A stretch of DNA of 64,000 bases from an uncultured delta proteobacterium (GTDB lineage Bacteria > Desulfobacterota > Binatia > Binatales > Binataceae): contig CAWHNS010000011.1 of the NCBI GenBank assembly GCA_963830715.1, positions 65,243 through 129,242 of the forward strand, written 5' to 3'. Under the pieces are notes generated by a model. The model was not told where the DNA came from. It made no database searches and saw nothing but the letters and a program-made list of their open reading frames with translations. Positions 5,090 through 59,120 of this stretch are shown here, piece after piece (position 1 is the first letter of the stretch; each line of letters starts with the position of its first letter). The position numbers and the translations under genes are program-made.

Positions 5090-6488
5090 TCACCGATCCG
5101 ACTTCGATTCGGACCCAAATGCCGTCGGGCGCGGGCCCGCGCTCACGACCGGCGTCAGCGGCGGGCATTTGTGGGTGTTCAAAATCAGCGGCGGCAAGGG
5201 ATGCTGATTGAAGTCGAAACTGTCCATCAAGTCGTTGGCGGCCGAGTCGCGATCGGTCAGAGGCTTGAGCCCGAAGCGCAGCTCGATGAACTTGAGGACT
5301 GAGGACAACTCGTAGGTTGTGTGGCTTATGAAGCCCGCCTTGGCGAACGGGGAAATAATTATCAGCGGAACGCGCGGCCCAAATCCGAATTGATCGCTGT
5401 GAGGCGGCGCGACGTGATCGTAGAAGCCGCCGAAGTCGTCCCAAGTGAGAAAAATCACCGTCGAGCCCCAGGCAGGACTGCGCATGATCGCGTTGATCTG
5501 ATTCACGGTCCAGTTCTCACCTTCACAAACGCTGTTGGGAGGGTGGTCGCTGTCGGCGTACGGCGGCACCAGCCACGAAACCGCAGGAAGGCAACCGCCG
5601 GAAACGTCGATTGCGAATAGCCTCTGCGCGTGAACTTTCGACCATAGAGAGCCCCTCGCGGATATGCTTGATCGCATCAAGCGCCGACCAGATATGACCC
5701 GGGTCCCATTTGGGCGGAGCGTAATAGGCCCAACTGACGCCGGCCGACTCCAACTCGTCGGCAGTCGTCTGAAAATCGAAACATGGGAACTGCTCCGTGA
5801 TGTTGCCCAGGCTGTCGATCACCTGGACCCTGTCGTCGGCATCCTCGTCGCACCCCCATTCCAAATAAGAACCGGGGCCAGTTGGATTGTTGATGGCGCC
5901 TCCGGATTGAGCGCCAACCGTATAAAGATGGTTGGGGAAGCTTGGCCCATGCAGCGACGAGAACATGCGGTCGGCAAGCGTGAAGTTGCTGGCGTAAGCC
6001 CAGTAGTTGGGAATCTGCGTTTCCGAGAACCGCGTATAGCCCAGTAGCCGCCCATTCAGGTCTCCGTCCTCGACCAGGTTGAACCCGTCCATCTTGCCGT
6101 CATCGATGGCGGTCAGGGCGTCGTTCCAACTGTGGCCGAGATCGTAGGGCATGCTGTCGGAGGCCTCGGTGAGCGGGACTACCGAACCCGTCGAAATTTT
6201 GCCACTGGTGGCACCGTCCGCGCCGGGGAACCCGGCGAAGTAATTGTCGAAACTCCGATTCTCCTTGATGAAGAATACGATGTGCTGAATGTTGTTCAGT
6301 TGCGGCAGATTCGCAGGCGCCGCGGGTGTCGAAGTGGCCCCGGTACAGGCGCCTTGATCGTCACCGCCGCCGCATCCGAGGAGCAGCACTGCGGCAACGG
6401 CAACCCAGCCGAAACGCGCGAGAATAGAGCTACGCGGCTTCGCTGATTCCTTCTGCCGGCAAAAGCCGAAAATCCTGCAAAACTCCAT
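5090..6488 (-). CDS. Phosphoesterase-family lipoprotein (phospholipase C / acid phosphatase family), split by a 1-nt frameshift
   Basis: Track ORFs 5523..6647 and 5090..5680 are two halves of one protein ([19 protein letters not shown]... and ...[18 protein letters not shown]...). The frames join at [16 protein letters not shown] across a C4 run at 5652-5655. I chose ATG 6488 as the start (MEFCRIF...AAVLLLGC lipobox); the upstream gene ends at 6517. Confidence 0.8.
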
Positions 6489-6516
6489 TCCCACTCCATT
6501 GGTAAGGCCCGAAACA

Positions 6517-7743
6517 CTAAGCGGAGGCTCCGCTTTGGAGGACGCGCTCGTAGATGCCAAGAACCATGCACGCGGCGCGATCCCACGAAAACTGTGCCGC
6601 GCGCTGGAGGCCACGCGACACCATGCCCGCGCGCCTGTCGGCGTCATCGAACAGGCTCGCGATCGACGCGGCGAGAGCCTTGAAGTCTCCGGGCGCGACC
6701 ATCAAGGCGGCGTTGCCGACGACTTCGGGAATCGATCCCGCGTTCGAGGCCACCACCGGCGTCCCGCAGGCCATCGCCTCCAGCGGAGGCCAGCCGAAAC
6801 CTTCATGCCATGACGGAAACGCCAGCACGTCCGCCGCTTGATAGAAGGCCCTCAGCGCTTCGTCACTGCGCGGGCTGCCAGCCTGGATAACGCGTCCGGT
6901 CAGGTTGAGTTCCGCCATCAGGCTGGCTTCATCGTCGAAGAAGCCCTCGCCGACGTGAACGAGCCAGACCGGCCCGGCGGGTTGGTCGTTGAGGATACGC
7001 AAGGCGCGCAGAATCGCCGGGACATTCTTGTAGCGTTTTTTTCGTCCGCAGACGCTGAGGACGACTCTCGCCGCTTCGGGAATTTCAAGACTGCGCCTGA
7101 GGCCCGCGATCGCATCCGGATCGTTGCCGGGGCGAAACGCGGGCGACAGGCCCGGATGAACCACGACGGTGCGCTCGGCAACTCGCGGCAGAAACGTACA
7201 CAGGTCGCGCCTGGTCAACTCGGAGTCGGCGATCACGCAAGCGGCGCGCGCCATCACACGCATCCTGAGCATAAAGGTCAGCGAGACCCGCTTTTTGGAA
7301 GTTCGCGGAATAAGTCCGCGCATGCTCAGCAGCGGGATTACGTCGTGGCAAGTGACGATAGTTTTGCGCGCGCCCAGCGCCATCACGAGCTGCGAGTATC
7401 CATGGGTCAGGATGTGGAACAGATCCGCGTCGAGCCGTGCGGCGCGCATCGGATAGTGGAGATAGCGGGTGATGCCGCTGTCGATCCATGTACCTGCGCC
7501 GCCGATCAATCGCCCAACGATCTTGAGCGGCTCGATCTGATAGTCCGCGAATCGCCAGCGATCGCCCGCGTTCGCGCGCAAGGCGCTCTCCAATTCGTTC
7601 GCGTACCTGCGCATGCTGAAGCCGCCATCGCCCTCCTGCCCGCGCAGCAGCATCACCTTGGCTGGTCCCGCCCGTTCGCAGACGCGCCGGTCGGTCTGCG
7701 GTCCGGCGGAATTCAAATGTTCGCCAGCCCTGTTCGCGATCAT
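6517..7743 (-). CDS. GT4-family glycosyltransferase
   Basis: This is the C-terminal 408 aa of the 944-aa track ORF. Motif [34 protein letters not shown] (E-x7-E). ATG 7743 overlaps the upstream stop (ATGA at 7740-7743). Confidence 0.85.
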
Positions 7744-9351
7744 TGCCCGCGTAATCTGTGACGGGCCGCAAATCGTCCGACCAGGCCGGGAGCCGTTTTT
7801 TCGATCAAGCCAAGGACTTCGTAGTCCTCGGCGTCGAGTCCCATGGCAAGCAGCGATCCGCCGAAGGCAACGATGGAGACCGCCGACTTCGCGGCCAGCC
7901 GCGCCAATGGTGCAGTAGGGCCGAACAGATGGACGGCGCAGAGGGCTGCGATGCAAATCAGAGTGGCGATCGCTCCCTTCAAGAACCTGGGATCGTAGGG
8001 CCACAGTCGAAGCGTCCATCCCACCTGAAACAGGTAGGCGATGCTCAGGGCGCAGGCCGCGCACGCGGCCGAGAGCGCCGCACCGGTAATGCCCAGCCGC
8101 GGGATCGCGATCCAGTTGAGCGCGATATCCGCGACCAACACTATCGCGCCGATCTGCGCCGACCGCCTCTGTTGGCCGGTCATCAGCAGGATCGAGATTC
8201 CGGCGCCGGTTCCCACGTTGACAAGTTGCCCGAACGCAAGAATGACCGCCGGCATCGCGCCCGCCGCGTAGATTCGGCCGTACATCACTGTCATCAGGTC
8301 CCGGCTCGCGAAGCATATGGTCAGAAACATCGGCAGGCTCAGATACAGCGCCCACTTGGTGCTTACGCGATACAACTCCGCCAGTACCTGATTTTCCTTT
8401 CGGGCATACGCCGCCCCGATCATCGGAAACAGGATCGAGCTGAAACAGGTCAGGATAATCGTGAATAAAACCGAGCACTGGGAAGCGGCCTGATAGATCC
8501 CGACTTCCGTCGCCGATCGGAAGTGCGCGACGAGCAATCGATCCACCAGAAAGATCAACAGCGTGAAGGTGCCTATCGAGACTGCCGATACGGAAAAGCC
8601 GACCAGCGATCGGATCGGAAACGCCACCCGTGGACCGCGTTCGAAGAGACTCCGGAAAAAGCCGGTGTACATAGCGGATCGCGAGGGCGAGGGCGACTGC
8701 GAGCGAGATAGCAAGCGCAGCCAGAGCGCCGGTCAAGCCCCATCCGGCAAGGTAGAACAAAAGGAAGAGCACGACTGCGATCGCCGGCTGGACGATCGCC
8801 TCGGCGTACACGCTGTACTGCATTTTCTGGGAAATCGTGGTCGCCGTAGCCGCGACTCTGAGGCCGGCAGCGAGAAACAGCGCCGGCGCGATCATCCTGA
8901 TGACCGGTCCCAGCGCGGGCTTTGCGAAAAGCCGGGCGCCGATCCATCCGGCGCTCAGATAGAGAATCGCCGCCGCCACGGCGCCCGAAAGCATCGCGAG
9001 CGCGAAAGACAACCGCATTACGGCCCGGAACCTCTCGCGGTCATCTGCCCAATAACGCGACCCGTAGAAGAGAACTCCGGCGTCGAGCCCGAGCGGCGCG
9101 ATCAGACCTACTATCCGCAGCACCGTCCAGCCGACCGCATAGAGTCCGAAGGCTACCGGACCGAGCAGGCGCGCCAGCGCGATCTGCCCCGCTATCTGAA
9201 TGCCGCGTCCGGAAAGCCGCCCGGCCAGAGTGACCGCGGCTCCCGAGGCGAGGCCGCTCATGTCCTGTGCGCCGGCTCCGGCATCGTGACGCGCGACGCC
9301 AGCCGTCCCGACGGGCGCATCTATCGCAGCAGCCGTGCTCAGTTCAGCCAT
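7740..9351 (-). CDS. wzx: Wzx-type polysaccharide flippase (MOP superfamily), split by a 1-nt frameshift
   Basis: The N-terminal about 230 aa of track ORF 6517..9351 plus ORF 7740..8714 form one multi-TM protein. The join is ...AIRYVHRLF|RSLFERGPRVAFPIRSLVGFS at an A5 run (8656-8660). The total length is not a multiple of 3. Confidence 0.8.
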
Positions 9352-11861: not shown

Positions 11862-13345
11862 TTAAAAGTCCGCCGTCACGTAATCCTGCGGCGCGTTCGT
11901 CATGCCATACTTAAGGGCCAGCATCAGGCCGACCGACACGTAGAGATAGCGGTCATACACCGCATTTCCGACCAGGCTGGTAAGCAGCATCACACACACC
12001 GACGCCAGCAGGCCGGTCGCCATCACGTGCGCGAAGCTTCTTGGCGGCGACAGCTTGAACCGCAGCTTCAACGCGAGCGCCAGCACGCATCCCATGACCG
12101 CAAGATAGGAGGTCAGGGCCAGGATGCCGCCGCCCTGGAGCAGCCCCATGTATGCGGCATCAGCGTCGTGAACCCGGCTCATTCCCTGGCCGCTGATCGG
12201 ATCCTCGAGAAATCCGATAAGTGCATAGTGCAATTGAAGCATATGACCGCTGGTGTCCGGTGCTGCGCCCGAAACCGTGCCGGTCAGCCGCTCGACTGCG
12301 GAAAACGCCGCAAACGGGTCAAGTCGATAGTAATTCACAATCGCGAGCACCGCGGCGACGCCGCCGCTAGATAGGTGAGAAGCCATGTCCACACGCGCAG
12401 TTCGAGCGCCACCGCGATCGCGAGCCCTGCAACCGCAGCGACCAGCGCGCCTCGCGAACCGGACAACATGATGCCGATTGCGATGCCTGCCAGGACCACC
12501 AGATAAAGCAGCCGTCTGCGCCAGGTCTTTGCCGTGCATCCGAGCAACACCGCGACCGGCAAGGCAACCGCGCACGACACTCCAAGATGGACCGGCTGCG
12601 AGGTCAGTCCGTTGAACCGGTCGATCCAGGCCTTCGAATTGGTTAGAACTTCCTCCACGTTGGTGAAGCCGAGAAGCTCCAGCACCGATATATAGCCATT
12701 GGCTGCGGCCGAGACGATCCAGAGGTCCGCGATCAGCCGCAGCCGCGCCGGGCTGTTCGCAGTCGCGCCCAAAATCACCGGGACGATCAGCAGCGCGACG
12801 GCGAAATCGGCGTCGACCGCCAGATTGCCCTGCGTAGTGGTTACGTCGTGGGCCTTCGAGACCTGGAGCAGGTCGGTGGGACTGGTGGTCGCCGTGAAGG
12901 TGGCCAGCACGGCCGCCGCCAGAAAAACAAATACGCAGCCGAGCAGCGCGGGCGGGACGCTGCGCCAGAACTCGTCCTTGTTGAGGATTGGCACCGCCAG
13001 GAAGACCAGCGCCATTGCCATCATGACGTCGCTCAAGGTGCCCGGCCCGATGCGAATGCCGTTGAAGGTCACCGTTACGGTGCCAAGCAACACGAACAGC
13101 GTGCCCACGTATTCGATGGCGCTGAGATCGCCGAAGGTGGCGGAGTCCCGCAGCAGGATCAGCGCCGCCGCCACTGCGAGCGGTCCGGCGACCAGCAGAA
13201 GCTCCACGCCGGGCGAGACTCGATGCGAGAGCCTGGAAAGCTCGGGACCGACCGCGAGCGCGATCAGAATCGCCGCTGCGGGCGCAAGCGCGGTGACCGC
13301 GGAAAGTATCGGCAGGCGTCCGCGATCGAGAGTGGGACTAGCCAT
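11862..13345 (-). CDS. O-antigen ligase/Wzy-like polysaccharide polymerase, split by a frameshift
   Basis: Track ORFs 12335..13345 and 11862..12575 are colinear halves of one protein with 10 or more TM helices. Motif IMLSGSRGALVAAVAG (Wzy_C-type loop). The frame switch lies within about 12340-12400. Confidence 0.7.
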
Positions 13346-14284: not shown

Positions 14285-14368
14285 CTGACTGATACGGCTG
14301 TCAGGACACGCTGGAAGATCGCAGTATTATCGCGGAAGGTGGGTGGATTCGGGTCCGATATCGCGGGC

Positions 14369-15722: not shown

Positions 15723-17185
15723 CTAGTGCGCGCCCTTTCGTTTGAGGACTGCGGGAATCGTTCGGACGAGAATATCCACGTCAGTGCGAATCGACTGATC
15801 GCGCACATATTCGAGGTCCAACTCCGCGCGCCTGGCCGTGTCGACTATTTCGCTGCGTCCGTTGACTTGCCACAGACCCGTCAGGCCGGGTTTCACCGAC
15901 AGGAACAGATGCGCCAGGTCGTCGTAACGCCGAATCTCGGGCGGAACGACGGGACGGGGGCCGACCAGGCTCATGTCGCCCGTAAGAACATTGAAGAGCT
16001 GGGGCAGCTCGTCGAGGCTGGTCGTTCGCAGGAACTTGCCGAACGGCGTGACGCGAGGGTCCGCTCCTTTGGGCAGCTTGTAGTTGTTGGATACATACCT
16101 GTCATACAGATCCGGATCGGCCTTCAGGGCCTGCTCGGCGTCGGCGTGCATCGTGCGGAATTTGTAGAGCCGCACGCGTTTCCATTTCTGCCCGAGCCGC
16201 TCTTGAACGAAGAGCACCGGGCCGGGGCTGGTCAATTTGATTAGCGCCGCGATGGCCAGCATCAGCGGCGACAGGCATACCAGCAGGACCGCCGAGCCGA
16301 CTACATCGATCGCCCGTTTGACGAACACCTGGAAGCGGCTCATCCCGCGCCCGCCGATCGAAACGATAGGTATCCCGGCAAACTGGTAGAGGCTCTGGCG
16401 AAACAGACTCGCATCGAACATGCCGGTGACGATATTCACCCGCTTGCCCATCCTGATGAAACGCAGCGCCATCAATTCCACGTCCATCAGGCCGACAGCG
16501 CGGGAACGAGGAAAATCTCGTCGGCGTTCTCTGCCAGGGCGGAGGATATCGCGTGCGCCGCATTCGATCCGTTCCCCGCGCCGTTCGCGCCATTTGCGCA
16601 GTTGAGCGGCGCACCCTCGTCGGGGACGATGCCGACCAGTTCGTAGCCGGCAGGCTGCTTCTCCAGGAACAGGCGGGCGAAGCGCTCGGCGCATTGCCGC
16701 TCGCCAACTATCAGCGCCCTGGTAACCGCGCCGTGGCGAGCCAGATAGCCCAGCAGGGCCGCGGTGCCCGCTTCCCGGGTCATCAGCAGGAGCGTCGCGA
16801 TCGAGAAATAGGACCACGCAAGCGGCCGCCCGACTACCCGCAGTTTGAGCGTAAAGACCACGAAGCCCACGGCGATGATCCAGAGCGCCAGGGTCTGCAG
16901 ATGGTTGCCGACCGAGGTGAGGAATCTCTCGCCCGTACGCCTTTCGTAGATACCCCGGTAGCGCGCGATTACCAGCCAAATCGCGACCGTGACCGCCACG
17001 AACAAGAGCTGTTGGGTGGAACCCTGAGGCAGCTTTTCGGGGCCGCGAATCAAAATCAGCAGCCGATTGCCTGTCACACTCGTGACCAGATAGCCGGCGA
17101 GGACGAAGGCTAGCGCGATACAGAGAGCATCGAGGACCCCCGAGATTTGCTCGATCCGGTTTGTTTCACGTTGCATTAGTTTCAT
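15723..17185 (-). CDS. Polyprenyl-phosphate hexose-1-phosphate transferase (WcaJ/WbaP-like initiating enzyme), split by a frameshift
   Basis: C-terminal Bac_transf domain ([21 protein letters not shown]...LYKFRTM...[21 protein letters not shown]). N-terminal TM helices plus a Rossmann-like linker. The halves join at [19 protein letters not shown] near 16490-16497. ATG 17185 lies 1 nt after the upstream TGA. Confidence 0.85.
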
Positions 17186-17186
17186 C

Positions 17187-18434
17187 TCACTCGACAACCT
17201 GGGCGACCGGGCTGCGCCTCCGCCCTTCCGTGGTACCGATCGGATCACCCCCCATGCCCGAGACCTCCTGGTACATCGCCAACATCCGCATGCCGACTGC
17301 CTCCCACCCGAACTGTTCACGTACTAGCCGGCGCCCACGGCTTCGCATCAGGTCGGCGAGCGACGGCTCGTCGAGCACTCGCGAGATCGAGCGCGCCGTC
17401 GCGCCGGCGTCGCAGTCGACGATGAGACCCGCACCCGCTTCCTCGATTTCCCGCCAGATATTCACCTTGTTCGACATCACGACCGGCACCCCGAGGCAGA
17501 GGCTCTCAAGGATGACCAGTCCAAAGTTCTCGGTGTATGAAGGCAATACGAAGACATCGGCGGCGGCGTAGGCCGACGACCGTTCGGCTCCGAGGAGCAT
17601 GCCCGTGAAGGTCGCCTTGTCCGCAACTCCATTCTCCACGAGCCAACTGCGTACGACGCGCGAATAGCCCTCCTCATCGGGACCCGCGATCACCAGATGG
17701 ACATTATCGCGAGTCCGGCAGACGATCGCGAACGCCTTGACCAGAATATCGAGCCCCTTTTTGAAGTTAAGGCGGCTCAAGAAAAGAATCCGCTTCTTTC
17801 CAGCGGTCTCCGGATGGCGGCGCACGAAATCCCCGGCGCTGCCGATCGGTTCGAGCTGCGCAGGATCGAAGCCCTCGGGCACCGTGACTGCATTGAAAAC
17901 CGGCTTGCCGCGCCCGCCGTGGAACAGCCCCGTAGAGGCGGCCAGATGCATCTCCTCTTCGGCGGTAAAATGCACCGCGCTCGCGCGGCGGAGCGCCGGA
18001 GCGACGAACATCCGCTCGGGAATCCGCTTCAGCGATCGGCGCACGCGGAACATGAAAGGATCGAGACTGCCGTGCGGCTTTATGACGTATGGAACACCGT
18101 AGCGCCGGCACAGGTACGCGGCCGCGACGAAATGGAACCGGTACAGTCCGTGTATGTTCACTACGTCAGCGGTGGGTATGGCCTTTCGAAGTCCCTTCAA
18201 CAGCCCGGACGAGAATCCGTAGGCGGTCTTTGACGCCGGAAACTGATGCACCTCGACGCCATCGACGGTCCCTTCCTCAGCGTCGAGCAGCGGCGAGTGT
18301 CCGCTTTCGTATGTGGTGAAAATGGATACCCGCTGACCCATCCGGACAAGTTGGCGGCTGAGTTCGAGACAGGCCACCGCCGATCCGCCATAGGCCGGAT
18401 CGATCCGGTGAATCACCTGAATTATTCGCAGCAT
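17187..18434 (-). CDS. GT4-family glycosyltransferase
   Basis: 415 aa with motif LPSYTENFGLVILESLCLGVPVVMS (E-x7-E). Confidence 0.85.
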   Translation of the reverse strand: MLRIIQVIHRIDPAYGGSAVACLELSRQLVRMGQRVSIFTTYESGHSPLLDAEEGTVDGVEVHQFPASKTAYGFSSGLLKGLRKAIPTADVVNIHGLYRFHFVAAAYLCRRYGVPYVIKPHGSLDPFMFRVRRSLKRIPERMFVAPALRRASAVHFTAEEEMHLAASTGLFHGGRGKPVFNAVTVPEGFDPAQLEPIGSAGDFVRRHPETAGKKRILFLSRLNFKKGLDILVKAFAIVCRTRDNVHLVIAGPDEEGYSRVVRSWLVENGVADKATFTGMLLGAERSSAYAAADVFVLPSYTENFGLVILESLCLGVPVVMSNKVNIWREIEEAGAGLIVDCDAGATARSISRVLDEPSLADLMRSRGRRLVREQFGWEAVGMRMLAMYQEVSGMGGDPIGTTEGRRRSPVAQVVE

Positions 18435-18455: not shown

Positions 18456-19542
18456 TCAGGATACGTGGCCCCGGTTCCGCAACCAGGCGACAGTATCCGC
18501 AACGCCCGTCTCGAGGCTGTAGGGCAGATCGCCGCAGATCTCCTCGAGCGGCGAGGAATCGTAAACCATGTCGGTGATCAGATTGTTCAGCCGGAAGGAT
18601 GTAAGAGGCGGTTCCTGCCATCCACACTTCTTGAGCAGGTCACCGGCTGCGGCCCCGATCTTGAGAACCGGATATGGGAGCGTCCTGATTGGTGCGCTAC
18701 CGAGCGCCTTCGCAATCATGTTCGCCCATTCGCTCAGCCGCAACGGCGGATAGTCGCAGACATAGATCGTCCGCCGATTGATTTGCTCGCGAGGCGCGTG
18801 CAGCAACCGATCGATCTGATAGATGGTATTGCCGACGTAGCCGAATGATTTTCGAGGATCGTGATCGCCGGGGCGAAAATATCGGCCCCGGGCAATCGAG
18901 AGGAAAAACGTGCGATAGGGAATCTCGAACCAGGGACCCCAGATCGAGCACGGCCTGAAGATGACCCACTCGCAGTCCAGGCCGGCGCCGCGCACCAGGA
19001 CTTCGCCTCGCGCCTTGCTCTCGCCGTACAGGTTCGGCGGACAGTAGTCCTCGTCGCTCGCGGGCTGGTAGGCTATCCGGCATACCATCCGCGTTGACGC
19101 AAACGCCACTCTTCGCGTCGCGGCGCATTCGCGCAGCGCCGCGACTACGTTCTCGACTCCCTTGACATTCGCTGCGTAACCGTCGAGACCGGAGGTCTCC
19201 GCATATGTCGGTTCGTGCGGCCAGATGCAGCAGATAGCCGGGCGCGAACTCGCGCAAGCTGCGCTTGATCAGATCCGCGTCGAGAATGTCGCAAGGCTGC
19301 CAGTATGGATGATGGTCCGGATTGAGGGGCGGCTTTTTGTCGAGGTTGAGTACCTCAAATCCGCGCCTGACGAAGTACTCAACCGAATTGGTGCCGATAA
19401 AGCCGGAACCGCCTGTGATGACAATCCGTTCGCGGGCACAATCGGCAGACGGCCGCGCGGCTCCGAGTTCCAAAGCGGAGGGCCCGCCGCCGATCCGCCC
19501 CGGCTCTTCAGCCCGCCCGTTCACGCGAACTTCACCCGGCAA
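18456..19542 (-). CDS. NAD-dependent epimerase/dehydratase (extended SDR), split by a frameshift
   Basis: Rossmann motif ITGGSGFIGTN and catalytic motif YGESK (YxxxK). Track ORFs 18697..19542 and 18456..19109 join via HLAARTD|YAETSGLDGYAANVKGVENV (my translation) near 19200-19215. The start codon is uncertain. Confidence 0.75.
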
Positions 19543-25646: not shown

Positions 25647-28600
25647 CTAGAGCTTGGTCCCGAGCAACGCGATAACGGCCAGCGCCTGTGCGCTGTTCGC
25701 GAATATCGAACTCACATCGACTGCGTACTGCAGGTTGATGTACGACTGGATGTCCTGCGGCACGTAGACCGTGTCGCCCGGTTCGAGCGCCGCATCCATC
25801 AGACCGCCGGTAACTACCGACATGAAGGGGAAAGTATGAGACTCGCTCAATCCCTGGCTGGTCACCACGGCGCCATCGGCCTTGATAATCATAACGTGCT
25901 TCTTGTCGGAGAACGGCGTGTAGCCGCCGGCCCGGTCCAGGTAATCCTGAACAGTCAGGGCGTTTTGCGCGATGATCGAAGTCGGCTGGTAAACCTCGCC
26001 AAGCACGTTGACCGACGAGGGCATCTTGGGAACCGCGATGTAATCCTGATCCTGCACCAGCAGGTCGTCTGAGGACCCGGTGAGCACATCGAGCGCCTTC
26101 TTGGGCGACGACGACATGTGAACCACTACCCGGCCGACCGCCTGCTGGTTTTGGAACTGGCCCAGCATGGTCTCCAGCCCGGCGAGCGCGGCCGAACTAT
26201 CCGAAGCTCCGCCGGAAGTGGAGGTGGAGCCCTTCGCCACCAACGGACTGATCAGTGCGAACTGGGCGATACTCTGCGAGAGTTGCGCCGTGGCGGTGTT
26301 GAGCTGCTGCTGCTCCAACAGCTTGGTGGTGGCGCGCGTGAACACGATTCCGCGCGGGAATGCATCTGCGCGGAACCCTCCGCATTCGTGCAGGAGCGCG
26401 CTCAGGCGCTCGCCCTCGCTGATTACGTAAAGGCCGGGGCGCATCACCTCGCCCCCGACGCTGACGACCCACGGCAGATGCCAGTTGCTCGCGACTGCCA
26501 CGAATACCTGGTCGTTCCTCTGCAGAATCGGGTCATCCTCGCGGCTTCCGCTCAATGCTTTCTGGAGGTTGACATCGATGTAGTAGTAGCGGGCGTGCGC
26601 GCCGTTCGACGACTTCTGTGCGTATCAGCCGAATCTTCTCCCGGTACGCGTCGTCCTTGAGACCGCCCGCCATGTAGATCAGGTCGCTGACCCGGGTGTC
26701 CAGATTGAGCGGATACTGCCCTGGCTGGCGAATCTCGCCCTGGATCTGGACCGTCGCCAGGTCGCGCAGGTTGTCTTCGTTGAAGATGTCGAGTTCGTCC
26801 TTGTCGTACAGCAGAGCGTCATCCGGTCCGCCCGGATGGTTCAGTGCGGCCTCGAGATCCACCGAGATGTTGCGCTGGCGCAGCGAAGGCTCTTGCAGTC
26901 TCTTGATCAGCGCGTACCCGAAGAAGGTATGGTAGTTGACGCCCTCGCCGAGCTGGACCAGATCCGAGACCCGTAGCCCGTGGCGCCACTGGAATTCGCC
27001 CGGACGACGCACGTTGCCCGTCAACTCGACCACGGCGCGGTGCTCGGGCAGGACGTGATAAACGCGCAACAGGTCCCCGTCGTGAATCAGGACGTGTTTC
27101 GAGTCGAGCTGCGACATGGCTACGTCAACCGCCACCATGCGGCGATGGTTATCGACTCTCAGAATTTGCGCGCGCTCGGTGTTGCTGAACGGGCCGACCC
27201 CGCCGGCAAGTTTCAGCGCTTGCCGAACAGTGCCCGTGGTTCCCGGCAGCTCGTAGATGGCGGGGCGGTTCACGTCGCCCACGACGCCCACCACTGATCC
27301 GACCACCGGGACGAAAATCACGTCGTTGTTCTCGACCCGAACGTCTCCGGCGTCATCACCCCGCATCAGCATGTCGTAAAAGTCGATTACCTGGATGATC
27401 TGGTTGTTGCGGCGCAGTTGCACCCTGCGCAAGCTTCCGATCTTCTGCGGCCCGCCTGCCGCGACCAGCGCCGCCGACACTCTGGACAAGCCGCTTACGG
27501 TGTACGTTCCGGGCTGGTTTACCGCGCCGATCACGTAGAGCTGCACTGTCCTCAGCTGCCCCATCGTGACCTGAATCATCGTGCCTTTGATCAGGCTGAC
27601 GCGCTCATCGATGAGCTTCTTGGCCGTGGCGAAGGTCAAGCCGCCGATCTGCAGAGGTTCGACGTTGGGAATCTCTATCTGGCCATTGCGATCGACCTGG
27701 AGAGTCAAGGTCTGATTGATGCGCCCCCAGAAGTAGAGAATTAACTGGTCGCCGGGTCCGATGACGTAGTCATCTCCCACCGGCACGTTGCCGACCGGCG
27801 CGAAGGTCGAGACCGCGGTCAGGAACACCGAATCAGCCGAACTGGCCCAGCGGCTGATTAATCGGACTCGGCGTGGTCGGCGTCATCCCGAGATCGACCT
27901 GGTTGAATCCTTGCTCGATCGGGCTTGGCTGCTGGCTGGCCATGTATCCCGGAGACATCTGTCCCGGCTGCGATTGAGCGCCCGGCTGCGAGACGCCCGG
28001 CTGCGGCGGCAGGCTCGTTTGCATCGAGGGTTGCATCCCCTGGGGGATCTGCGGCGTTATTCCCTGCGCGCACGAGAAGGCCTGTGCAAGAAGCTGCGGG
28101 TTACTTACCCCGGCCGCTTGCGCCATGGCTTGAATCTGTCCCTGGCTGATCCCGCTGGCGGCCAGACGCGCACACAGTTTCTGGACCTGATCCTGAGACA
28201 CGACGCCGGTCGAAATCTGGCCGAGCAAATTCTGCGCGTCTTCGGGCGAGACTCCAAGCTGCCCAAGGAAGGTGCTGATCAGCTGCGGGCTGAGCTGACT
28301 CAGCGCACCCGCTATGCCTCCGAGCGGCAACCCGCCCGGCGCAAGGGCAGTGGCCGCGCTCTGCGATCCGTTCTGCGATCCCATCGGACCAAGCGGCATC
28401 GCCGTTCCCGGCGCGAGCGGGACCATCGGCGTAGCGCCCATCATTCCGGGCGCCATCGGCGCAGCGCCCATCATTCCGGGCGACTGGTACTGATACGGAC
28501 TGGTCATCGATCCGGGAGCACTTGGGTAGCTTGGATAACCAGGATTGGCCGGGTAGGGCGAGTAGCCGGAGGGAGGCTGCGAGGTTGGGTATCCGGGCGC

Positions 28601-28984
28601 GCCGGGCGCCATCGATGGCGGCGCGGAATAAGCGGGATTCGGTGGCATCGATCCGGGTGCGCCTTGCGTTTGGTACATCCCGGGCTGCGAGGGCGGGGCT
28701 CCGTAGGCGCCCTGCGGCGGCGCCCCGTTAGGCGAAGCGCCATAGCTGGATGGCGGAGTACCGTAGTTATATTGCTGGTTCGGAGGGAACTGAGACTGGA
28801 CGGGAGATCCGTACGGCTGAGTGGGATAGCCGAATTGCCCACCGTTGAGCGTCGTGCTGCTGCCGTTGACGAGCTGCGCGCGCGCGGTTTCGCATACGCA
28901 AAGCAGCGCGCAGATCGCGATCGCACACGGCAGAGCGCCGGACACTGATATCGAACCCGGGAAAACCAACTTTGAGAACTTCAT
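25647..28984 (-). CDS. wza: Giant Wza-like polysaccharide export protein (signal peptide, uncharged low-complexity region, Q-rich region, Poly_export plus multiple SLBB-like units), split by two frameshifts
   Basis: Three colinear track ORFs: 27833..29287, 26533..27828 and 25647..26555. Start ATG 28984 (GGAG SD; MKFSKLVF...CETARA). Junction 1 is PLGQFG|DSVFLTAVSTF at 27833-27836. Motif DYVIGPGDQLILYFWG. Junction 2 lies near 26600-26628 (...REKIRLI / KSSNGAHARYYYIDVNLQ). Confidence 0.8.
28424..28483 (-). repeat. Tandem 30-bp coding repeat (2 copies, 2 mismatches) inside the exporter low-complexity region
   Basis: 28424-28453 and 28454-28483 (catcggcg[t/c]agcgcccatcattccgggcg[c/a]) encode PGMMGAAPMA / PGMMGATPMV. 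Confidence 0.9.
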
Positions 28985-29353
28985 GCCTGTCTCCGCCCCT
29001 ATTTGTCTCAGCCCCTGTGGGGATCTTGAATCGCTCGAGCCGAATCGATCTCTACGACGGGAATCTTCGTTCCGGGCCTTTTCGATGCGACCGGCAGGAT
29101 GAGCAAAGCATCGCCCGCGTCCGCCGTTCTGTGAACAGGCCTCCGGGTCGCAGATTCCTGCCTCCGCCGCTGGATCGTTACGGCTGCATGACAGCTTCGC
29201 CGCGAAATCAAAAGCGTTTCGCGGCAGCCTGAAAACATCGCAGGAATGTCCATTGAAATCAAGGTCGAAGATTTCTGCCTCCGTCACCGATCATTGCCGC
29301 TGCCTGAGCGACTTCCCGGCGCGGTGGGGACTTGCGCTCGCGCGCCCGCTCGA

Positions 29354-29362
29354 TGGTATAGT
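29354..29362 (+). promoter_or_regulatory. Extended -10-like element (TGgTATAGT) upstream of wzi paralog 2
   Basis: tggtatagt at 29354-29362 sits 12 nt before ATG 29375, implying a very short or absent leader. The only -35-like element I see (ttgcgc) is about 19 nt upstream. Confidence 0.3.
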
Positions 29363-29374
29363 CGCCTGCAAATA

Positions 29375-31050
29375 ATGGGGTTCGCGCGCAAAGTCCTGCT
29401 GCTGGCGGCGCTCGGAGCATGGTGGTGCATCGCTTCGGCGGCGCCGGCGGGCGCCTCGACCTACGTCGTATACATCCCGCTCGATAGCCCGATATACGAC
29501 GAACTCGATACGCTGAATGGCCTGGGTTTGCTCGACAGCTATCTGTCCGAGATCAAGCCGATTAGCCGAATCGAGGCGGCTCGGCTGACTATCGAGGCCG
29601 CCGGAAACTTGCCCTCATCGGAAAAGAACAACGCGCTCGCCCGATCGGTACTCGACGCGCTGCGTTCCGAATTGAGAGAAGAGATCGGGTGGCTCGACAA
29701 CAACGCTGAAGATGGACAACCGACCATGGTTCATCCGCTGCAGCGCGTCGAAGCCCAGTACATCTTTTCGCGCGGCGAGCAGCGCTTCTGGGACACCGGC
29801 GGTACCGGAGGCCTTCACGCGCAAGAAGGCACACCGCTACTGCCGAACAACGACGGGATCCCGACCGGGGCGGGAAGCAACGAGGTGCTGCGAGCGAGCG
29901 GGTGGGGCGGCTTGGCGGGATTCCTGACCACATATGGAGAGGCCGCGGTCACCGGCCCGGTCACGCATTCGCTTTCCAATGCGGAGAGGCTCCGGCTCCT
30001 GGGCGGCGAAGCGGTCGTCAGCGCGGGCAACTTCGCGCTCTCCTTCGGGCAGGAGGAAATGGCCTGGGGGACCGGTCATTTCGCCAGCCTGTCGCAGGGA
30101 AATAACGCAGCCCCGTTTCCTGCGCTGAGGGCCCAGAACATCCATCCGACCCTGCTGCCCGGCATCCTTCGCTACCTGGGTCAATTCCGTTACCAGATTT
30201 TCTTTGGGCAACTCGACAGCGATCGGTATTTCGCTCATCCGTGGATCGACGGCCAGATCTTCAGTTTCAAACCGCTGCCGACTTTCGAATTCGGCCTTAC
30301 TCACACAATTGATTTCGGCGGCCGCCACAATGATTTCTATTCTCCGCTTGGCTTTCTGGGACGCGCCACCGCCTTTTCGACCGGATCGGTTTCCGCAGGC
30401 AATACGCACCAGCGTGGCGGCGTATATCTGAGATTCTTCATCCCCAGCCTTAGAAATGTTCAGGTGTACCAGGAGATCGTCGGGAACGACAATCTGACTG
30501 CCGAAGTTAGCCCGGTCGGCCGATTCCTCCCGTTCCTTTCTGTTTCCTACCAGGGCGGCTTCTATCTTCCGCGACTGACCGCAGATGGCCGCACCGATCT
30601 GCGCTTCGAATATGCCTTGCTCGAACCGAACGACCAGCAGCATAGCGACTCGTTGTATTGGACGTACAACGGCTGGCTGATGGGCGACGGGCTCGGCCCA
30701 ATTCCACAGAGGTCAACGTGCAGATCGGCCGATGGTTTCGCGGCCTCACCAAGGCCAGTGTCGATGTCTTTTACACCGAACGCGCGCCCAAGTTTGATAC
30801 CAACACCCAATATCCAGCCGCAACCTACGGCGGCGCGCTCACCAAGGAGCGCAGCGGAGGGGTGGCTTTCGACCTTCTGCGCCTCCCGCAGAGTACTCAA
30901 TGGATTAGCAATATATTACTCGATGGCCGCGCTCGAATTGCATTTGAGTACGTCGATCACCTGAACTACGGCGGGCCCGGCGAATTTCGGGCCCTGGTGA
31001 TGCTCTCGACCAGCCTGACCCCGACCTGGTCGAGTCTCGCGTGGCGCTAG
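29375..31050 (+). CDS. wzi: Wzi-like capsule-assembly outer-membrane protein, paralog 2, split by a 1-nt frameshift
   Basis: Start ATG 29375 (MGFARKVLLLAALGAWWCIASAAPAGA|S). YVVYIPLDSPIYDELDTLNGLGLL motif. Track ORFs 29246..30964 and 30658..31050 join at LMGDGLGP|NSTEVNVQIGRWF at a C3 run (30697-30699), matching paralog 1 (LMGDPIGNNGSEIDLNVGRWF). Confidence 0.7.
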
Positions 31051-37581: not shown

Positions 37582-38530
37582 TCATCGCAGTCCGGCCAGA
37601 CGCATCAGTTCCGCCAGACCCTCCTCAGTAGTCACCTCAGGTTGCCAGCCGAGCGTGCGCCTGGCTTGACTGAAGTCGGCCAGGGTATGGCGGGCGTCGC
37701 CGGGGCGGGGCGCGAGATTCACCGTGGGTCCGCCGATAAGCCGCGCGATCTGGTTTATGCTGCAAGCGCGGCCCTGGCCGATATTGAGGGCGCGGCCATC
37801 GGCCGGGCCGCAATTCATGGCGAGCAGGTTGGCGCGCACCACGTCGCGCACGTGAGTGAAGTCCCGGGTCTGCTCGCCGTCGCCGTGAATAGTCAGTGGC
37901 CGGCCTTCCCGGCGCAGTCTCAGGAACGCGCTGATGACCGTGACATAGGCGCCTTCAGCCGCCATCCGCGGACCGAAGACGTTGAAGTATCGCAACGTGA
38001 GCGTCTCCATTCCGAAGAGCTGGTGAAAGAGACGCGTATATTGCTCACCCACCAGCTTCTGGAGAGCGTATGGGTTAAGCGGCTTCGGCGGCATCTCCTC
38101 TCGCAGCGGCAACCGGTCCTGGTTGCCGTACACCGATGAGGAACCCGAATTGACGACCCTCCGGACGCCCGCATCGCGCGCGGCCACGAGCACGTTGAGG
38201 GCGCCGAGCGCGTTTACCATGTGCGTCTCGATCGGCTTCTCTATCGAGAGCGGCACCCGGGGCAGCGCGGCGGCGTGAAATACGCAAGCGACTCCGTCAA
38301 GCGCACCGGCGGATGGAATCGAGGACGCGGATGTCACCTTCGATCAACTCGGCAGCCGGATTGAGGTTCTCGCGCCGTCCGGTTGAGAAGTCGTCGAGCA
38401 CTCTGACCCGAACGCCTCGGTCGATCAGCGCGTCAACCAGGTGTGAGCCGATAAAGCCGGCCCCGCCGGTGACCAGCACAAGCGATGAGTCCGCTCGCGA
38501 TTGGGATTGACTAGCCATTGCGGTGGTCAC
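37582..38530 (-). CDS. NAD-dependent sugar-nucleotide epimerase (GalE/WbpP-like extended SDR), split by a 1-nt frameshift
   Basis: VTGGAGFIGSHL Rossmann motif and YALQK catalytic motif. Track ORFs 38297..38530 and 37582..38337 join as GDIRVLDSIRR|ALDGVACVFHAAA if one base near 38305 is removed. Confidence 0.8.
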
Positions 38531-43871: not shown

Positions 43872-45264
43872 ATGACTGAACGGCCAAATATCGTCCTCAT
43901 ACTCGCCGACGACATGGGCTACGGCGATTTCGGATGCTTCAACTATGGCGCGTCGCGCACGCCGGTGCTCGATCAGCTCGTTAACGAGGGACTTTGTCTG
44001 ACTCAGCACTATTCGGCCTCGCCGGTGTGCGCGCCCGCCCGCGCGTCGCTGCTCACCGGCCGCTATCCGCATCGCACCGGCGCGATCGATACGCTCGAGA
44101 TGCGGGGACTCGACCGAATCGCTCTGAGCGAACGCACGATCGCCGATTTCCTCAAACCCGCCGGATACGTGACCGGGCTGGTCGGGAAGTGGCACAACGG
44201 CGCGATCGATCCGCGCTATCATCCGAACCGCCGCGGATTCGACGAATTCGCCGGCTTCCGCGGCGGCTGGCAGCCCTATTGGCAATGGCGGCTCGATCGC
44301 AACGGCAGTCTCGCGGGCGCGGACGGGCGCTACCTGACCGAGGTGTTCACCGAGGAGGCTGCGCAATTCATCCGGCGCCATCGCGCGGAAAAGTTCTTTC
44401 TCTATCTCGCCTACAACGCGCCGCATTTTCCGTTCGAGGCTCTGCGAAGAAGACCTCGCGCCATTTCGCGACGCGGGAGATTTCACGCTCGCGGTGAGCG
44501 CGATCTACGCGATGATCCAGTGCATGGATCGCGGAATCGCGCGGGTGCTCGAAGAACTCGATCGGGCGGGAATCGCGGACAACACGATGGTGCTGTTCTC
44601 CAGCGACAACGGGCCGCAGTTCGGCGGTCAGGGTCAGATGTGTACCGATCGCTTCAACTGCGGATTCGCCGGGGCCAAGACGCTGGTGTACGAAGGCGGC
44701 ATCCGGCTCCCGATGATCATCCGATGGCCCGCGGGTCTCGGCGGACGGCGGCAAGTCCACGAGATGATCCACTTCACGGACTGGCTGCCGACGTTCCTCG
44801 CGCTGGCCGGCGTCGAGGCTCCTCGCGGCGTGAAGCTGGATGGGACAGACGTTATGCCGCTGCTGCGCGGCGAGCCTGGTGGGGTGCCCTCGCAGCGATT
44901 TTGGCAATGGAATCGCTACACGCCGGACGTCGAGTGCAACGCAGCGATGCGCGACGGCAAGTGGAAGCTCGTGCGGCCGGCGATTGGCGAGCTGATGTTC
45001 CCGACGCGCGACGATCTCGCGAAAGACGTGGACGCGAAATACAACCCCGACAAGTATCAGGACATCGATCGGGGACCGCTGCCGGAGAGACCGAGGCCGC
45101 CCGCTCCTGCGCCGCAACTGTTCGACCTCAAGGCCGATCCCTTCGAGCGCAATGATCTGGCCGCGGCGCATCCCGAACGGGTCGCCCGGATGACGATCGA
45201 GCTTGCGCGATGGTTCGAGGAAGTGGAGCTGGATCGGCGCCGCGCAGCGTCCTCTATTTCCTAG
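43872..45264 (+). CDS. Cys-type (formylglycine) sulfatase, split by a frameshift
   Basis: LILADDMGYGD and the active-site SPVCAPARASLLTGR (CxPxR) motif. Track ORFs 43872..45155 and 44494..45264 join as NAPHFPFEA..EEDLAPFRDAGDFTLAVSAIYAMIQCMD near 44435-44445. Confidence 0.85.
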
Positions 45265-46197: not shown

Positions 46198-46670
46198 TTA
46201 TTCCGGCAAAGCGAGCGTGTAGCCGCGATGGGTCCATCGCCAGCCCAATCGCTCGTAAAAACGATGCGCCTGCTTGCGCGTGCGATTCGACGTCAGCGAG
46301 AGTTTGTAGCAATCGCGTCGGCGCGCGATTTGGACCGCGGCGGCCATCAGGCGCTCTCCGACTCCCGCCCGCGGCTACGCGCATCGACAACGACGTTCTC
46401 CACGATTGCCACCGGCCTCAGCGCGCGCCCCAGATGACGGAAGATCAGCACATGGCAGCTCGCGACGATCTGGCCATTCGCGATCGCGACCAGCAGGGTC
46501 TGATCGCGATCGCGCGTCAGCGCACCGATCGCGCGCCGCATCTTCGCACGCCCCGGACTCACGTACTCCCCCGCGTGAAGCTGCCGGTACAGGTCCTCGA
46601 TCGCGCACTCATCGCCGGGCCGCGCCCGCCGAATCCGTACGGAGGTCGGGTTCATTTTAGGGGCAGGCAC
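46198..46670 (-). CDS. GNAT-family N-acetyltransferase, split by a 1-nt frameshift
   Basis: Track ORF 46347..46670 ends in ...VENVVVDARSRGR. Shifting one base at the C3 run 46364-46366 restores RGVGERLMAAAVQIARRRDCYKLSLTSNRTRKQAHRFYERLGW (GNAT motif A, my translation) up to TAA 46198. Confidence 0.75.
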
Positions 46671-46986: not shown

Positions 46987-46996
46987 AGCAAGCCTC

Positions 46997-47275: not shown

Positions 47276-47279
47276 CCTG

Positions 47280-47312
47280 ACATTGTACCGAATACCGGGA
47301 TGCGGTCAATGT
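47280..47312 (-). promoter_or_regulatory. Near-consensus sigma70-type promoter (TTGACC-N16-TACAAT) for higBA, overlapped by a 6-bp inverted repeat
   Basis: The minus strand reads aTTGACCgcatcccggtattcggTACAATgtcaggGTG. The -35 is at 47304-47309 and the -10 at 47282-47287, with the GTG start 6 nt after the -10. The ACATTG/CAATGT arms are at 47307-47312 and 47280-47285. Confidence 0.45.
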
Positions 47313-56206: not shown

Positions 56207-56782
56207 TCAAAGGCAGCCGCGCGCCGGCTTACGCCTACGTGAGGGCGCCCGCGTCAGCTTGTTGTAGTAGTGACAAAGCCAGTCCTCGATTTCATATGGC
56301 CTCAGGCGGCGGAATTGCGGGTGGAGGGCTTTCATCTCTTTCATCTCGATGGCCTCCGGTAGACCCAGAGCCTCAGCGCCGTGACGCGTTCCGGCATGCA
56401 GGTAGACCTTCTTGGGCTCCAGGCCCAGCTTCGCTCCTATTCGAAGAGTGATGTCGTACCGCGTAAGCTCGCCGACACCTTTGATACCGTCAAGTTGATC
56501 TTTGACCACCTTCATCAACGCGTCGAAATCCTTGCAGCCCCTGAGCTTTTTCAGCGCGCTCTCCAGTCCCAGTCGATCGGCGGCTTGCTCCAGGACCGCG
56601 CGCTTGAGCCGCCGTTGGTGGTCTTCCCGCTTTTCCCTTCCCCAATCGCGTGGTCTCTTTGAAAGCGCAGCTTTTCTCACCGCCTCTCGAAGCGTCGTTT
56701 GGCCCTGGTAGAAGTCAAGCGCCCCCCTCAAGCGGCTCCGGTCTTCACGAATGTAGGAAGCAATGCTACCAGCTAAGTCCAT
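56207..56782 (-). CDS. Hypothetical protein with a helix-hairpin-helix-like GVG motif
   Basis: Start ATG 56782 after a strong AAGGAG SD. The sequence is protein-like (…LDGIKGVGELTRYDITLRIGAKLGL…). I do not recognise the family. Confidence 0.5.
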   Translation of the reverse strand: MDLAGSIASYIREDRSRLRGALDFYQGQTTLREAVRKAALSKRPRDWGREKREDHQRRLKRAVLEQAADRLGLESALKKLRGCKDFDALMKVVKDQLDGIKGVGELTRYDITLRIGAKLGLEPKKVYLHAGTRHGAEALGLPEAIEMKEMKALHPQFRRLRPYEIEDWLCHYYNKLTRAPSRRRKPARGCL

Positions 56783-57363
56783 TGACTCACTCCTTTGGCA
56801 GATAGCGCCCGCGTTCGTCGCGGCGGGCGTTCCGGGCGCGCGCGCGACCGGCACGCACCTTAAACGCATTGCGGTGCAGCGAGCGCGCGCATCTCGCGCA
56901 CAATCGCGGACCGCTCGTTAGCGCTCGCGATTGTGGTGGGGTCTCCTCAGTGGTGGACACCGAAGGTTCACTTTTGGGTGAGCTTCAGCGTAAGCGATTG
57001 AAACAGCGCCATGCGACCGCTGATTCTACGCTCGCACGCACGCAAAGACGAGAACGCCCCGGCGGCAAGCTCTTGACAAACCGACCACCGGGGCGAAAGC
57101 TCGGTCGCATTGGGTTTGCGATGAGTGATTTAGAGCACGGCCGGTCCCCGAAGTCCACTTCCACAACTCCAGAGCAACTGCTAGCCGAAGCCTGCAAGCG
57201 TGGTGGTGGCGGGTTGGACGCCAGCGATGTACAGCCGCTACGCGATCGGCGCCGAGAGCGATCTCGAGTTTGCGCTGCCTGATTTGGATCGCTTTCTGCG
57301 CAAGGCCGGTTGGCAGTCTGGTGGCAGTGCCGAGAAAAGTTCAATCAGATCGCGGGCTTTGGT

Positions 57364-57440
57364 TGGTGGCGGCGGTAGGAGTCGAACCTACGACTCCACG
57401 GATATGAGCCGTGTGCTCTGACCAACTGAGCTACGCCGCC
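57364..57440 (-). tRNA. tRNA-Met (anticodon CAT), elongator-type; tRNA-Ile2(CAU) cannot be excluded
   Basis: Hand-folded 77-nt cloverleaf. Acceptor GGCGGCG/CGCCGCC, D stem GCTC/GAGC, anticodon stem CACGG/CCGTG with loop CTCATAT, T arm GTAGG-TTCGACT-CCTAC, discriminator A, and an encoded CCA. Confidence 0.9.
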
Positions 57441-57864
57441 ACCGATCGGATTAGACTAGCGGGCAGGCATCGGCGGCGAAAGAGCGCAGGGCGAAGAGCG
57501 CGGGCCAAAAGCCTGTGCCACTTGGGAAATCGGAGGGCCTGGCTCCTTCCTTCGTAGGGGCGGCTCGCGAGCCGCCCGCGGATTCCGGACGACGGGCGGG
57601 TCGATCCCACTCCGCGTCTGAGCCATCAACATTTGCGTTAAAGCACGCACTCTCGAAAACAATTTTGATCGCGCAGGTCGGTTGACTCCAGCCGACTGAT
57701 GAAATACTTCATGGAAGACTGAGTTTTCTCGAAGGAATCCCGATGCGAATCTTCCAGGAGAATAATCGCACCCGCAAGGGTTGAAGCGGACTTCGATACT
57801 TGGCGTGAAAAAGCCCCGAGCTTCGATGGCCCGGGGCTTTTTCTTTTTGCGATCCGGGACGGCG

Positions 57865-59120
57865 ATGACGACAGAAAATAATCACAGCGATTCGATTCGC
57901 TCGATCGTGCGGCGCTACTACACGGTCTGGTGGTTCCAGGCCTTCGGGCCGTCGTTCATCTTCGCGATCTATCCGCTGTTCATGCGCTGGCGCGGATTGA
58001 ATCAGCTCCAGATCAACAGCGTCGCGGCGACCTTCTTCCTGGTCACCTTCATCACCGACATTCCGACCGGCGCGTTCGCCGACGCGATCGGGCGGCGCAC
58101 CGCCTTCATTATCGGGAGCGCGCTATCCACCGTCGGGTTCATGGTCTATTTCTTCGCCCATCGGTTTCCGATGTTCCTGGTGGGCGAGCTGTTCGACGGC
58201 GTCGGCTTTACCTTTCGCAACGGCGCGGTCGATGCCTGGGCGGTCGATGCGCTCGACGCGGCGGGATATGCGGGCACCAAGGATCGGCTGTTCTCGCGCG
58301 TCTCGCAATTAACGCGAATCGGCAATATGGCGGGCGCGCTGATCGGGGCGTACGCCGGAGCCCGCAATCTGGCGATGCCGTGGCTGCTGGGCTCCTGCGG
58401 TCTCGCGCTGAGCGGAACGGTCGGAGGGCTGCTGATGGATCGCGAGCCGCGCCGCAGCGGGCAAGTTCGATCCGGGCGCGATCGCGAGGCGGGTGCAAGA
58501 GCGGATGGGGCAGGGGATGCGGATCGGGTTCGGCACGCGGGTGGTCCTGCTGCTCGCGCTGGCCGGCGGGATTCAGCTCGCAGCGTGGGGCCCGTCGTGG
58601 TTCGAGTGGCCCGCGTACTTCAACGATCGCCTCAACTCCGGCATACAAGTTGTAGGATGGTTGTTCTGCCTGTTCAATCTCGCCGGGATGGCTGGGCTCC
58701 GAGATCGCGGCGCGGATGTACCTGGATCGCTCGCGGCGCGCGGTGTTCCTGGCCGGCATGACCGCGCTGGGCAGCGCGCTGATGTGGGTCGCCGGCGCCG
58801 GCGCAGGCCACGTGCAGGTCGCGCTCGCGATGTTCGTGCTGACCAACTTCTGCGGCGGGCTGGTCTGGCCGGTGCAGCAGAGCTGGTTCAACGAGCAGAT
58901 CGACGGCGAGTATCGCGCCACGCTGCTCTCGTTCCAGAGCACGTTCGCGACCTTCGGCGCCGCCGCGGGGCTGCCCGCCGGCGGCAGGGTCGCGGACCGC
59001 TTCGGTATCGGCGTCGCATGGCAGATGGTGGGAATTCTCTCGATACTGTCAACGCCGTGCTACTGGGCGCTGCGCCCCCGCCCGGCGCTTGCGAAACTCG
59101 CGGCAGAGCCCGCGGACTGA
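57865..59120 (+). CDS. MFS transporter, split by two frameshifts
   Basis: Three colinear track ORFs: 57781..58761, 58493..59158 and 58716..59120. Motif DAIGRR. Junction 1 is near 58445-58462 (LLMDREPRR../GKFDPGAIARRVQERM). Junction 2 is at G3 run 58694-58696 (FNLAGMAG|SEIAARMYLDRS). Confidence 0.75.

Follow-up and report, generated by a model that had tools for sequence, protein, structure and literature searches.

Single-base frame breaks in an EPS locus and elsewhere in a Candidatus Binataceae genome are very probably residual long-read consensus errors and not gene decay

Eleven recognizable genes in one stretch of DNA from an uncultured Candidatus Binataceae bacterium are each split between two or three reading frames, which raises the question of whether these genes are decaying or whether the assembled sequence is at fault. 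All functional readings of this genome depend on the answer. The stretch, referred to here as the window, covers 64,000 nucleotides (assembly GCA_963830715.1, contig CAWHNS010000011.1, positions 65,243 to 129,242) and contains an EPS locus. The initial annotation listed 13 disruptions in these 11 genes. Using Pfam profile coordinates, paralog alignments, and single-frame homologs in relatives, we located all 13 at or adjoining the positions it had proposed. The genes and their breaks are as follows.

5090..6647, minus strand: phosphoesterase (PF04185), two frames; break within 5623-5717, likeliest at GAGCCCC 5649-5655; one extra base.
7740..9351, minus strand: Wzx-type flippase (Polysacc_synt), two frames; break within about 8633-8672, A5 run at 8656-8660; one extra base.
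11862..13345, minus strand: Wzy-like membrane protein, two frames; break at about 12345-12380, without a run of 3 or more bases; one missing base.
15723..17320, minus strand: initiating sugar transferase, two frames; break at about 16490-16510; one missing base.
18456..19542, minus strand: first NAD-dependent epimerase/dehydratase, two frames; break at about 19200-19225, without a run of 3 or more bases; one extra base.
25647..28984, minus strand: giant Wza/OPX-type exporter, three frames; breaks within 27836-27882 and at 26606-26608; one extra base each.
29246..31050, plus strand: Wzi paralog 2, two frames; break at about 30685-30712, adjoining GGGCTCGGCCC (30689-30699); one missing base.
37582..38500, minus strand: second epimerase/dehydratase, two frames; break within 38300-38343, without a run of 3 or more bases; one extra base.
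43872..45264, plus strand: sulfatase (PF00884), two frames; break at about 44430-44460, where GAGGCTC (44436-44442) is GAGCTC with a G added; one extra base.
46198..46655, minus strand (read from 46655 to 46198): GNAT acetyltransferase, two frames; break within 46350-46374, CCC runs at 46364 and 46368; one missing base.
57781..59120, plus strand: MFS transporter, three frames; breaks at about 58436-58475 and 58680-58705 (GGGCTCC 58694-58700); one extra base each.

In six of these genes the two halves are colinear on a single Pfam profile: the phosphoesterase on PF04185 (1-185 and 227-356), wzx on PF01943 (2-192 and 194-271), the first and second epimerases on PF01370 (1-75 and 82-235; 1-58 and 62-240), the sulfatase on PF00884 (1-186 and 202-301), and GNAT on PF00583 (6-74 and 74-116). 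The halves of the initiating sugar transferase carry CoA_binding_3 and then Bac_transf. Paralog alignment confirmed the break in Wzi paralog 2 and both breaks in the MFS transporter, and it fixed the first wza site to the base at 26606-26608. The parts of wza comprise a signal peptide, a P/Q/G-rich linker, a Poly_export domain, and SLBB repeats. Its second break is real, as had been proposed, and is supported by a relative (G008, C2) in which a single 1294-aa frame spans the junction, but it had been assigned to 27833-27836, of which 27833-27835 are only the stop that ends the upstream frame; the true interval is 27836-27882. Wzy is encoded in another relative (G010, C70) by a single 467-aa frame that aligns to residues 57-489 over the junction at 328.

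All 13 sites show solely one-base frame changes, nine with one extra base and four with one missing base, in agreement with the earlier description of both +1 and -1 events unaccompanied by premature stops or large deletions. The long genes described as intact are so: the RND pump aligns over 1-1054, and queA, tgt, and secD span their full profiles. No breaks beyond the 13 were found in the window. Three further candidates were rejected. A possible 14th break at 55215/55252, suggested by a partial DUF4340 match, was dropped since the ORF downstream of it encodes a distinct membrane protein that has a Met of its own; a break-like switch at 53232 is a normal overlapping gene boundary with a GTG start; and three minus-strand pieces at 46.35-47.3 kb do not form one broken gene, the 46690-47305 part being a HigB/HigA-like pair.

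If the EPS island and neighbouring accessory genes were decaying through real frameshifts, the breaks should be concentrated there. Within the window all 13 hits are in accessory-type genes and none in the approximately 27 kb of housekeeping genes, and this split, from a post-hoc classification, leaves room for a few real lesions. The EPS locus is also a variable island. In a DNA search its identity to four genomes of the same genus (G001-G004) is just 65-74%, and synteny with them begins only at about window position 31068. The locus carries no clear excess of breaks, however (largest-gap P=0.74), as the initial annotation had noted.

The density of breaks elsewhere in the assembly had been set beforehand as a test of such decay, and we measured it with two censuses, one based on the genome's own paralogs and the other an ab initio Viterbi frame-switch scan. 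The paralog census found 276 junctions in 1.59 Mb genome-wide (0.174 per kb of paralog-covered DNA) and 6 junctions in 28.6 kb of the window (0.209 per kb). The two densities are the same (P=0.38, 78th percentile). The ab initio census found at least 609 frame switches, at 0.145 per kb in the genome versus 0.094 per kb in the window, with every large contig affected. These events are scattered with a variance/mean of 1.4-1.6 and cluster mildly at short range, gaps under 600 nt making up 13.7% versus 8.3% expected. The assembly consists of 24 contigs totalling 4.19 Mb with 85% completeness. Its essential rpoC gene contains three frame switches (0 to 2 to 1 to 0, at about C2:400650, 400980, and 401850); its rpoB gene is intact. 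Because the same one-base breaks occur genome-wide, even in essential rpoC, they are almost certainly uncorrected long-read errors.

The spectrum of lesions points the same way. Genome-wide there are at most about 8 credible in-frame stops versus the 276 frameshift junctions; no more than 23 in-frame stops have good flanks, and most of these are accounted for by one decayed paralog, a repeat array, or a Sec-type TGA. Insertions outnumber deletions genome-wide (420:255), and an excess of insertions is seen again at 164:112. Genomes undergoing reductive evolution resemble this one in having many broken genes, but in those genomes essential genes are spared, and frameshifts come together with nonsense mutations, deletions, and IS elements. 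In the present genome even rpoC is broken, and the lesions are indels only; the mix of nonsense mutations, deletions, and mobile-element insertions that marks true decay was not found. At least one truly decayed paralog with several in-frame stops does exist elsewhere, at C20:486 kb. Even with this paralog, the accessory-type genes hit in the window, and the divergence of the EPS locus taken into account, genuine pseudogenization is very unlikely, given that the lesions occur at equal density over the whole genome and are not restricted to dispensable genes or to one locus, that nonsense mutations, large deletions, and IS insertions are nearly absent, and that a hotspot of the breaks, described below, is a motif of the restriction-modification type.

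The close relatives G001 and G008 (Ca. Binataceae) are long-read MAGs of Microflora Danica (MFD), and the platform and coverage behind the window are inferred from them. The MFD long-read project sequenced only with Nanopore and polished once with Medaka, and its authors point to errors in MAGs of low coverage (PMC12313526). R10.4 bins at less than 40-fold coverage require polishing (PMC9262707; Sereika et al., 2022). The same-genus genomes have few contigs, yet are only 75-90% complete and have genes fragmented at other positions; rpoB of G002 is in at least six pieces. The genome studied here is like Nanopore-only assemblies and MAGs with frameshifts (IDEEL-type truncation; PMC9262707, PMC12313526) in its one-base indels, their genome-wide scatter, its fragmented gene calls, and its lowered completeness despite high contiguity, and for such MAGs the need for polishing is stated for coverage below about 40-fold.

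The classical account of Nanopore errors stresses homopolymers. By contrast, the bias here is weak (59% of junctions and 45% of controls have a run of at least three bases), there are no long runs, and insertions exceed deletions. The link to homopolymers drawn in the initial annotation thus holds as a mild bias but is weaker than implied, since 5 of the 13 likely intervals in the window lack a run of 3 or more bases.

A stronger signal was found with the degenerate palindrome GRGCYC, which is 3.8-fold enriched at frame breaks (p=8e-21). All three forms of the motif share in the enrichment, in contrast to 11 variants that differ by one base, and no such signal is present at true gene boundaries. 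Four window sites sit on GRGCYC. Among insertions, GAGGCTC and GGGGCTC are enriched 7.6- and 8.3-fold, and only these two stand out; all duplicated-base 7-mers pooled show no significant insertion-specific enrichment (Fisher p=0.67). There are about 2400 GGGCTC/GAGCCC sites in the genome, of which a few per cent are affected.

Recurrence of a sequence at some junctions could be taken as a sign of programmed recoding, with genuine frame changes that ribosomes would overcome by frameshifting at a signal such as GAGGCTC. We give this idea almost no chance. The motif is enriched both sense (4.5-fold) and antisense (3.3-fold) to the mRNA, and a test of orientation was not significant; an mRNA-sense-specific motif, which would mean recoding, appeared as 19:5 in a small set and was not supported in a larger set. 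Both +1 and -1 events are found at the motif, which in specificity matches a degenerate, palindromic restriction-modification site and is missing from about 90% of events. In relatives wza and wzy each occupy one frame, and the paralogs are single-frame too.

A technical variant of sequencing error is that the indels come from merged micro-diverse strain haplotypes and not from raw-read error. The MFD source material is soil, a metagenome of high strain complexity (PMC12313526), and the mild short-range clustering would fit such a collapse. Strain variation consists mostly of substitutions, however, and would give neither an indel-only spectrum nor a GRGCYC hotspot, and the conserved rpoC is hit as well. 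We therefore see only a very slight chance for this origin.

Together, the equal density, the broken rpoC, the near-absence of nonsense mutations, and the Nanopore-only relatives bear out the earlier preference for sequencing error over pseudogenization. The breaks are very likely one-base errors left in the consensus of a long-read MAG, some of them probably induced by base modification. The assembly would most likely be Nanopore-only (Flye and one Medaka round), of modest coverage and without short-read polishing. Some 600-1000 such indels would be spread near-randomly over it, about one per 4-7 kb, and the window would carry its share. The majority would be stochastic miscalls that slightly favour short G/C runs, and about a tenth would fall at GRGCYC, where basecaller and polisher may have tended to add or drop a G/C.

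The specificity of the motif suggests that GRGCYC is probably cytosine-methylated in native DNA. GRGCYC is a documented 5mC motif (BanII-type), as in Propionibacterium freudenreichii (PMC11649196), and at least four C5-methyltransferase loci are encoded in this genome. The hotspot resembles modification-mediated Nanopore errors at methylation motifs in that it follows the exact degenerate specificity GRGCYC, is symmetric between the strands relative to genes, and lies in a genome with C5-methyltransferases. Such errors on record are mainly substitutions, whereas the breaks here are indels in which a G/C is typically added at the R-G step.

The affected genes are most likely intact in the organism, and the EPS locus, the sulfatase, the MFS transporter, and the other genes are to be treated as such. 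Likely 15-25% or so of genes are called as fragments, and completeness estimates are depressed by the indels. Anyone looking in this genome or in the sister long-read MAGs for split genes, recoding, or pseudogenes would be misled without frame correction. Targeted re-polishing could start from the GRGCYC hotspot, which also gives a hint of the organism's methylome. The chances are about even that the hotspot is the trace of a BanII-type cytosine methylome active in this uncultured member of Ca. Binataceae, and that it marks a class of modification-induced indels, typically with a G/C added within GRGCYC, that arises systematically in Nanopore-only MAGs polished with Medaka and can be corrected. 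If so, this class of indels could touch many genomes in large long-read catalogues.

A codon-usage model trained on the entire assembly (4.19 Mb, 24 contigs, 63% G+C) showed a coding-frame switch at 13/13 sites where the initial annotation had listed single-base frame breaks. Homology confirmed each of them, which bears out 13 breaks in 11 genes. In seven genes, a Pfam search gave colinear profile coordinates from one piece to the other.

Window genes in two colinear pieces (Pfam coordinates, first piece / second piece)
phosphoesterase, PF04185 1-185 / 227-356
wzx, PF01943 2-192 / 194-271
initiating transferase, CoA_binding_3, then Bac_transf
epimerase 1, PF01370 1-75 / 82-235
epimerase 2, PF01370 1-58 / 62-240
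sulfatase, PF00884 1-186 / 202-301
GNAT, PF00583 6-74 / 74-116

An X-joined read-through of GNAT matched PF00583 6-116 (E=1.8e-14); this break stands, with the gene now assigned to the minus strand. At the first wza site the genome's own paralogs align through the frame change, one stretch stopping at 26608 and the next starting at 26606, and at the wzi2 break and both MFS sites they align straight across it. For the two sites without Pfam support (wza site 2 and the Wzy-like gene), we searched X-joined read-throughs in the family genomes. The wza N-terminal region and Poly_export domain form one 1294-aa frame in G008, and the Wzy-like protein is a single 467-aa frame spanning the junction in G010. 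The second wza break is real, but it had been placed at 27833-27836 and must lie within 27836-27882, 27833-27835 being a stop codon. There is an extra base at nine of the 13 sites and a missing base at four. Genes described as intact were intact on checking. Two extra candidate breaks, at 53232 and 55215, were rejected as ordinary gene boundaries, and the total is therefore unchanged.

The EPS locus (window 5000-31060) is a variable island with only 65-74% DNA identity to four same-genus genomes; synteny with G001 C8 starts at about 31068, in the RND operon. It holds a sulfotransferase (13421-14326) and methyltransferases, which suggests a sulfated or methylated polysaccharide. The Wza/OPX exporter and its paralogs at C7:273932-277027 and C7:155187 are unusually long (~1030-1110 aa). 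They combine many SLBB repeats with a signal peptide and a low-complexity linker of ~300 aa that is rich in P/Q/G/S; frames in family members are 870-1350 aa.

Other features of the window
25647-28984 (-), the Wza/OPX exporter
46690-47305 (-), apparently intact pair of HigB-like toxin (PF05015) and HTH_3 antitoxin, immediately upstream of the broken GNAT
47393-48802 (-), 470 aa, N-terminal HTH_17/MerR-type DNA-binding domain fused to a citrate synthase domain
55720-57766, weak coding signal on both strands

Far fewer indels elsewhere would, as the initial annotation had argued, point to decay. We conducted two independent censuses over the genome. In the first, all well-scoring ORF segments were compared with the genome by tblastn, and a colinear non-self match was scored when it changed frame at a tight junction. 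Over the 1.59 Mb of DNA covered by paralogs there were 276 such junctions (0.174/kb; 0.09-0.25/kb on each large contig), and six over the 28.6 kb so covered in the window (0.209/kb; Poisson P = 0.38; 78th percentile of 64-kb windows), so indels are not fewer elsewhere. In the second, an ab initio frame-tracking Viterbi, 609 of 1541 same-strand frame changes cannot be gene boundaries, the upstream frame staying open >30 nt past the switch. The density of changes passing this filter was 0.145/kb genome-wide versus 0.094/kb in the window. Because these strict criteria recover only 5/13 verified window sites, 609 is a floor; by extrapolation the genome would hold about 600-1000 frame breaks. Events are distributed near Poisson (variance/mean 1.4-1.6) and the largest event-free gap in the window is unremarkable (P=0.74). 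The window is not special in frame-break density.

The essential rpoC carries three frame switches (0->2->1->0) within 1.2 kb. An organism with rpoC thus broken could not live, and these switches therefore count as evidence for error, not decay. Substitutions dominate spontaneous mutation in bacteria, so that real decay should leave many nonsense codons. Paralog alignments across the genome gave only 23 in-frame stops with good alignment on either side, including about 11 in a D/S-rich repeat array, one Sec-type TGA, three in a single paralog with visible decay and one short compensated double indel. The lesion spectrum is indel-only. Both signs are present, with insertions exceeding deletions (164:112 in the paralog set, 420:255 in the merged set).

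Loci with in-frame stops
C20:186000-190500, long D/S-rich tandem-repeat array ('SDSDAYA*SNSDAYTDIDA'), TAG recurring in each unit
C21:309800, TGA opposite a Cys of the paralog ('ARI*HSAS' vs 'ARVCHAPS'), a candidate selenocysteine codon of a formate-dehydrogenase-like oxidoreductase
C20:486200-486750, paralog copy that aligns poorly in this region and has three or more stops, a candidate for a genuine pseudogene in contrast to the frameshift-only genes

The proposed homopolymer bias exists but is mild, with runs of >=3 bases at 59% of junctions vs 45% of controls, and 5/13 window intervals lack any such run. As the main context it gives way to a stronger signal, GRGCYC. An unbiased k-mer scan of event contexts picked out GAGCCC/GGGCTC, and among 675 merged events tested against controls GGGCTC/GAGCCC was enriched 4.3-fold, GAGCTC 3.0-fold and GGGCCC 4.5-fold (pooled, 10.4% of events vs 2.75% of controls, p=8e-21). 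Eleven one-base variants tested on the same events gave only 0.6-1.7-fold. The enrichment is seen in both mRNA-relative orientations and is absent at true gene boundaries. The motif carries insertions and deletions alike; among insertions, two 7-mers that are each the motif plus one G are enriched, GAGGCTC 7.6-fold and GGGGCTC 8.3-fold. Four of the 13 window sites lie on it, against a chance rate of 5.35% per interval (binomial P ~0.004, our own arithmetic).

GRGCYC-type motifs at window breaks
5649-5655
30689-30694
44436-44442
58694-58700

GRGCYC has BanII-type specificity and is on record as a motif methylated to 5mC (PMC11649196). C5-methyltransferases are encoded at four or more loci of the genome.

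C5-cytosine methyltransferases
C20:28358-29356
C1:193114-193686, profile matched in the N-terminal part only
C20:369519-370418
C23:178773-179667, itself split over two frames

Such a strand-symmetric, restriction-modification-like hotspot would be consistent with miscalling caused by base modification. It is at odds with both ribosomal recoding and mutational decay.

Microflora Danica long-read MAGs are Nanopore-only, assembled with Flye --meta --nano-hq and one Medaka round without short-read polishing, and their authors acknowledge Nanopore-associated errors in lower-coverage MAGs (PMC12313526). Polishing is stated as needed for R10.4 bins below 40-fold coverage (PMC9262707). We infer that the studied assembly, like its relatives G001 and G008, belongs to this catalogue. 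Within the family, Ca. Binataceae, the same-genus G001-G004 have 9-30 contigs, yet completeness is only 75-90%. Their genes are fragmented too, but at other positions; rpoB of G002 is broken into six or more pieces and the RND pump is split in G001 and G003. A frame change at a common rpoC profile position (~380-390) occurs in three relatives and is absent from the studied genome, G002 and G003. Either a systematic error site common to the three or a genuine split or recoding may lie behind it.

rpoC with the common frame change
G001:C12:195160-199324
G004:C5:419142-423306
G008:C1:1257697-1261816

Together, the rpoC breaks, the indel-only spectrum, the two signs with their insertion excess and the technical sequence context point to sequencing error over pseudogenisation, as the initial annotation had proposed. 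Only one point of that proposal is refined: the context bias lies chiefly with GRGCYC, not homopolymers. Judged from sequence, the 13 breaks are very probably assembly artefacts, and the 11 broken genes are to be read as intact.
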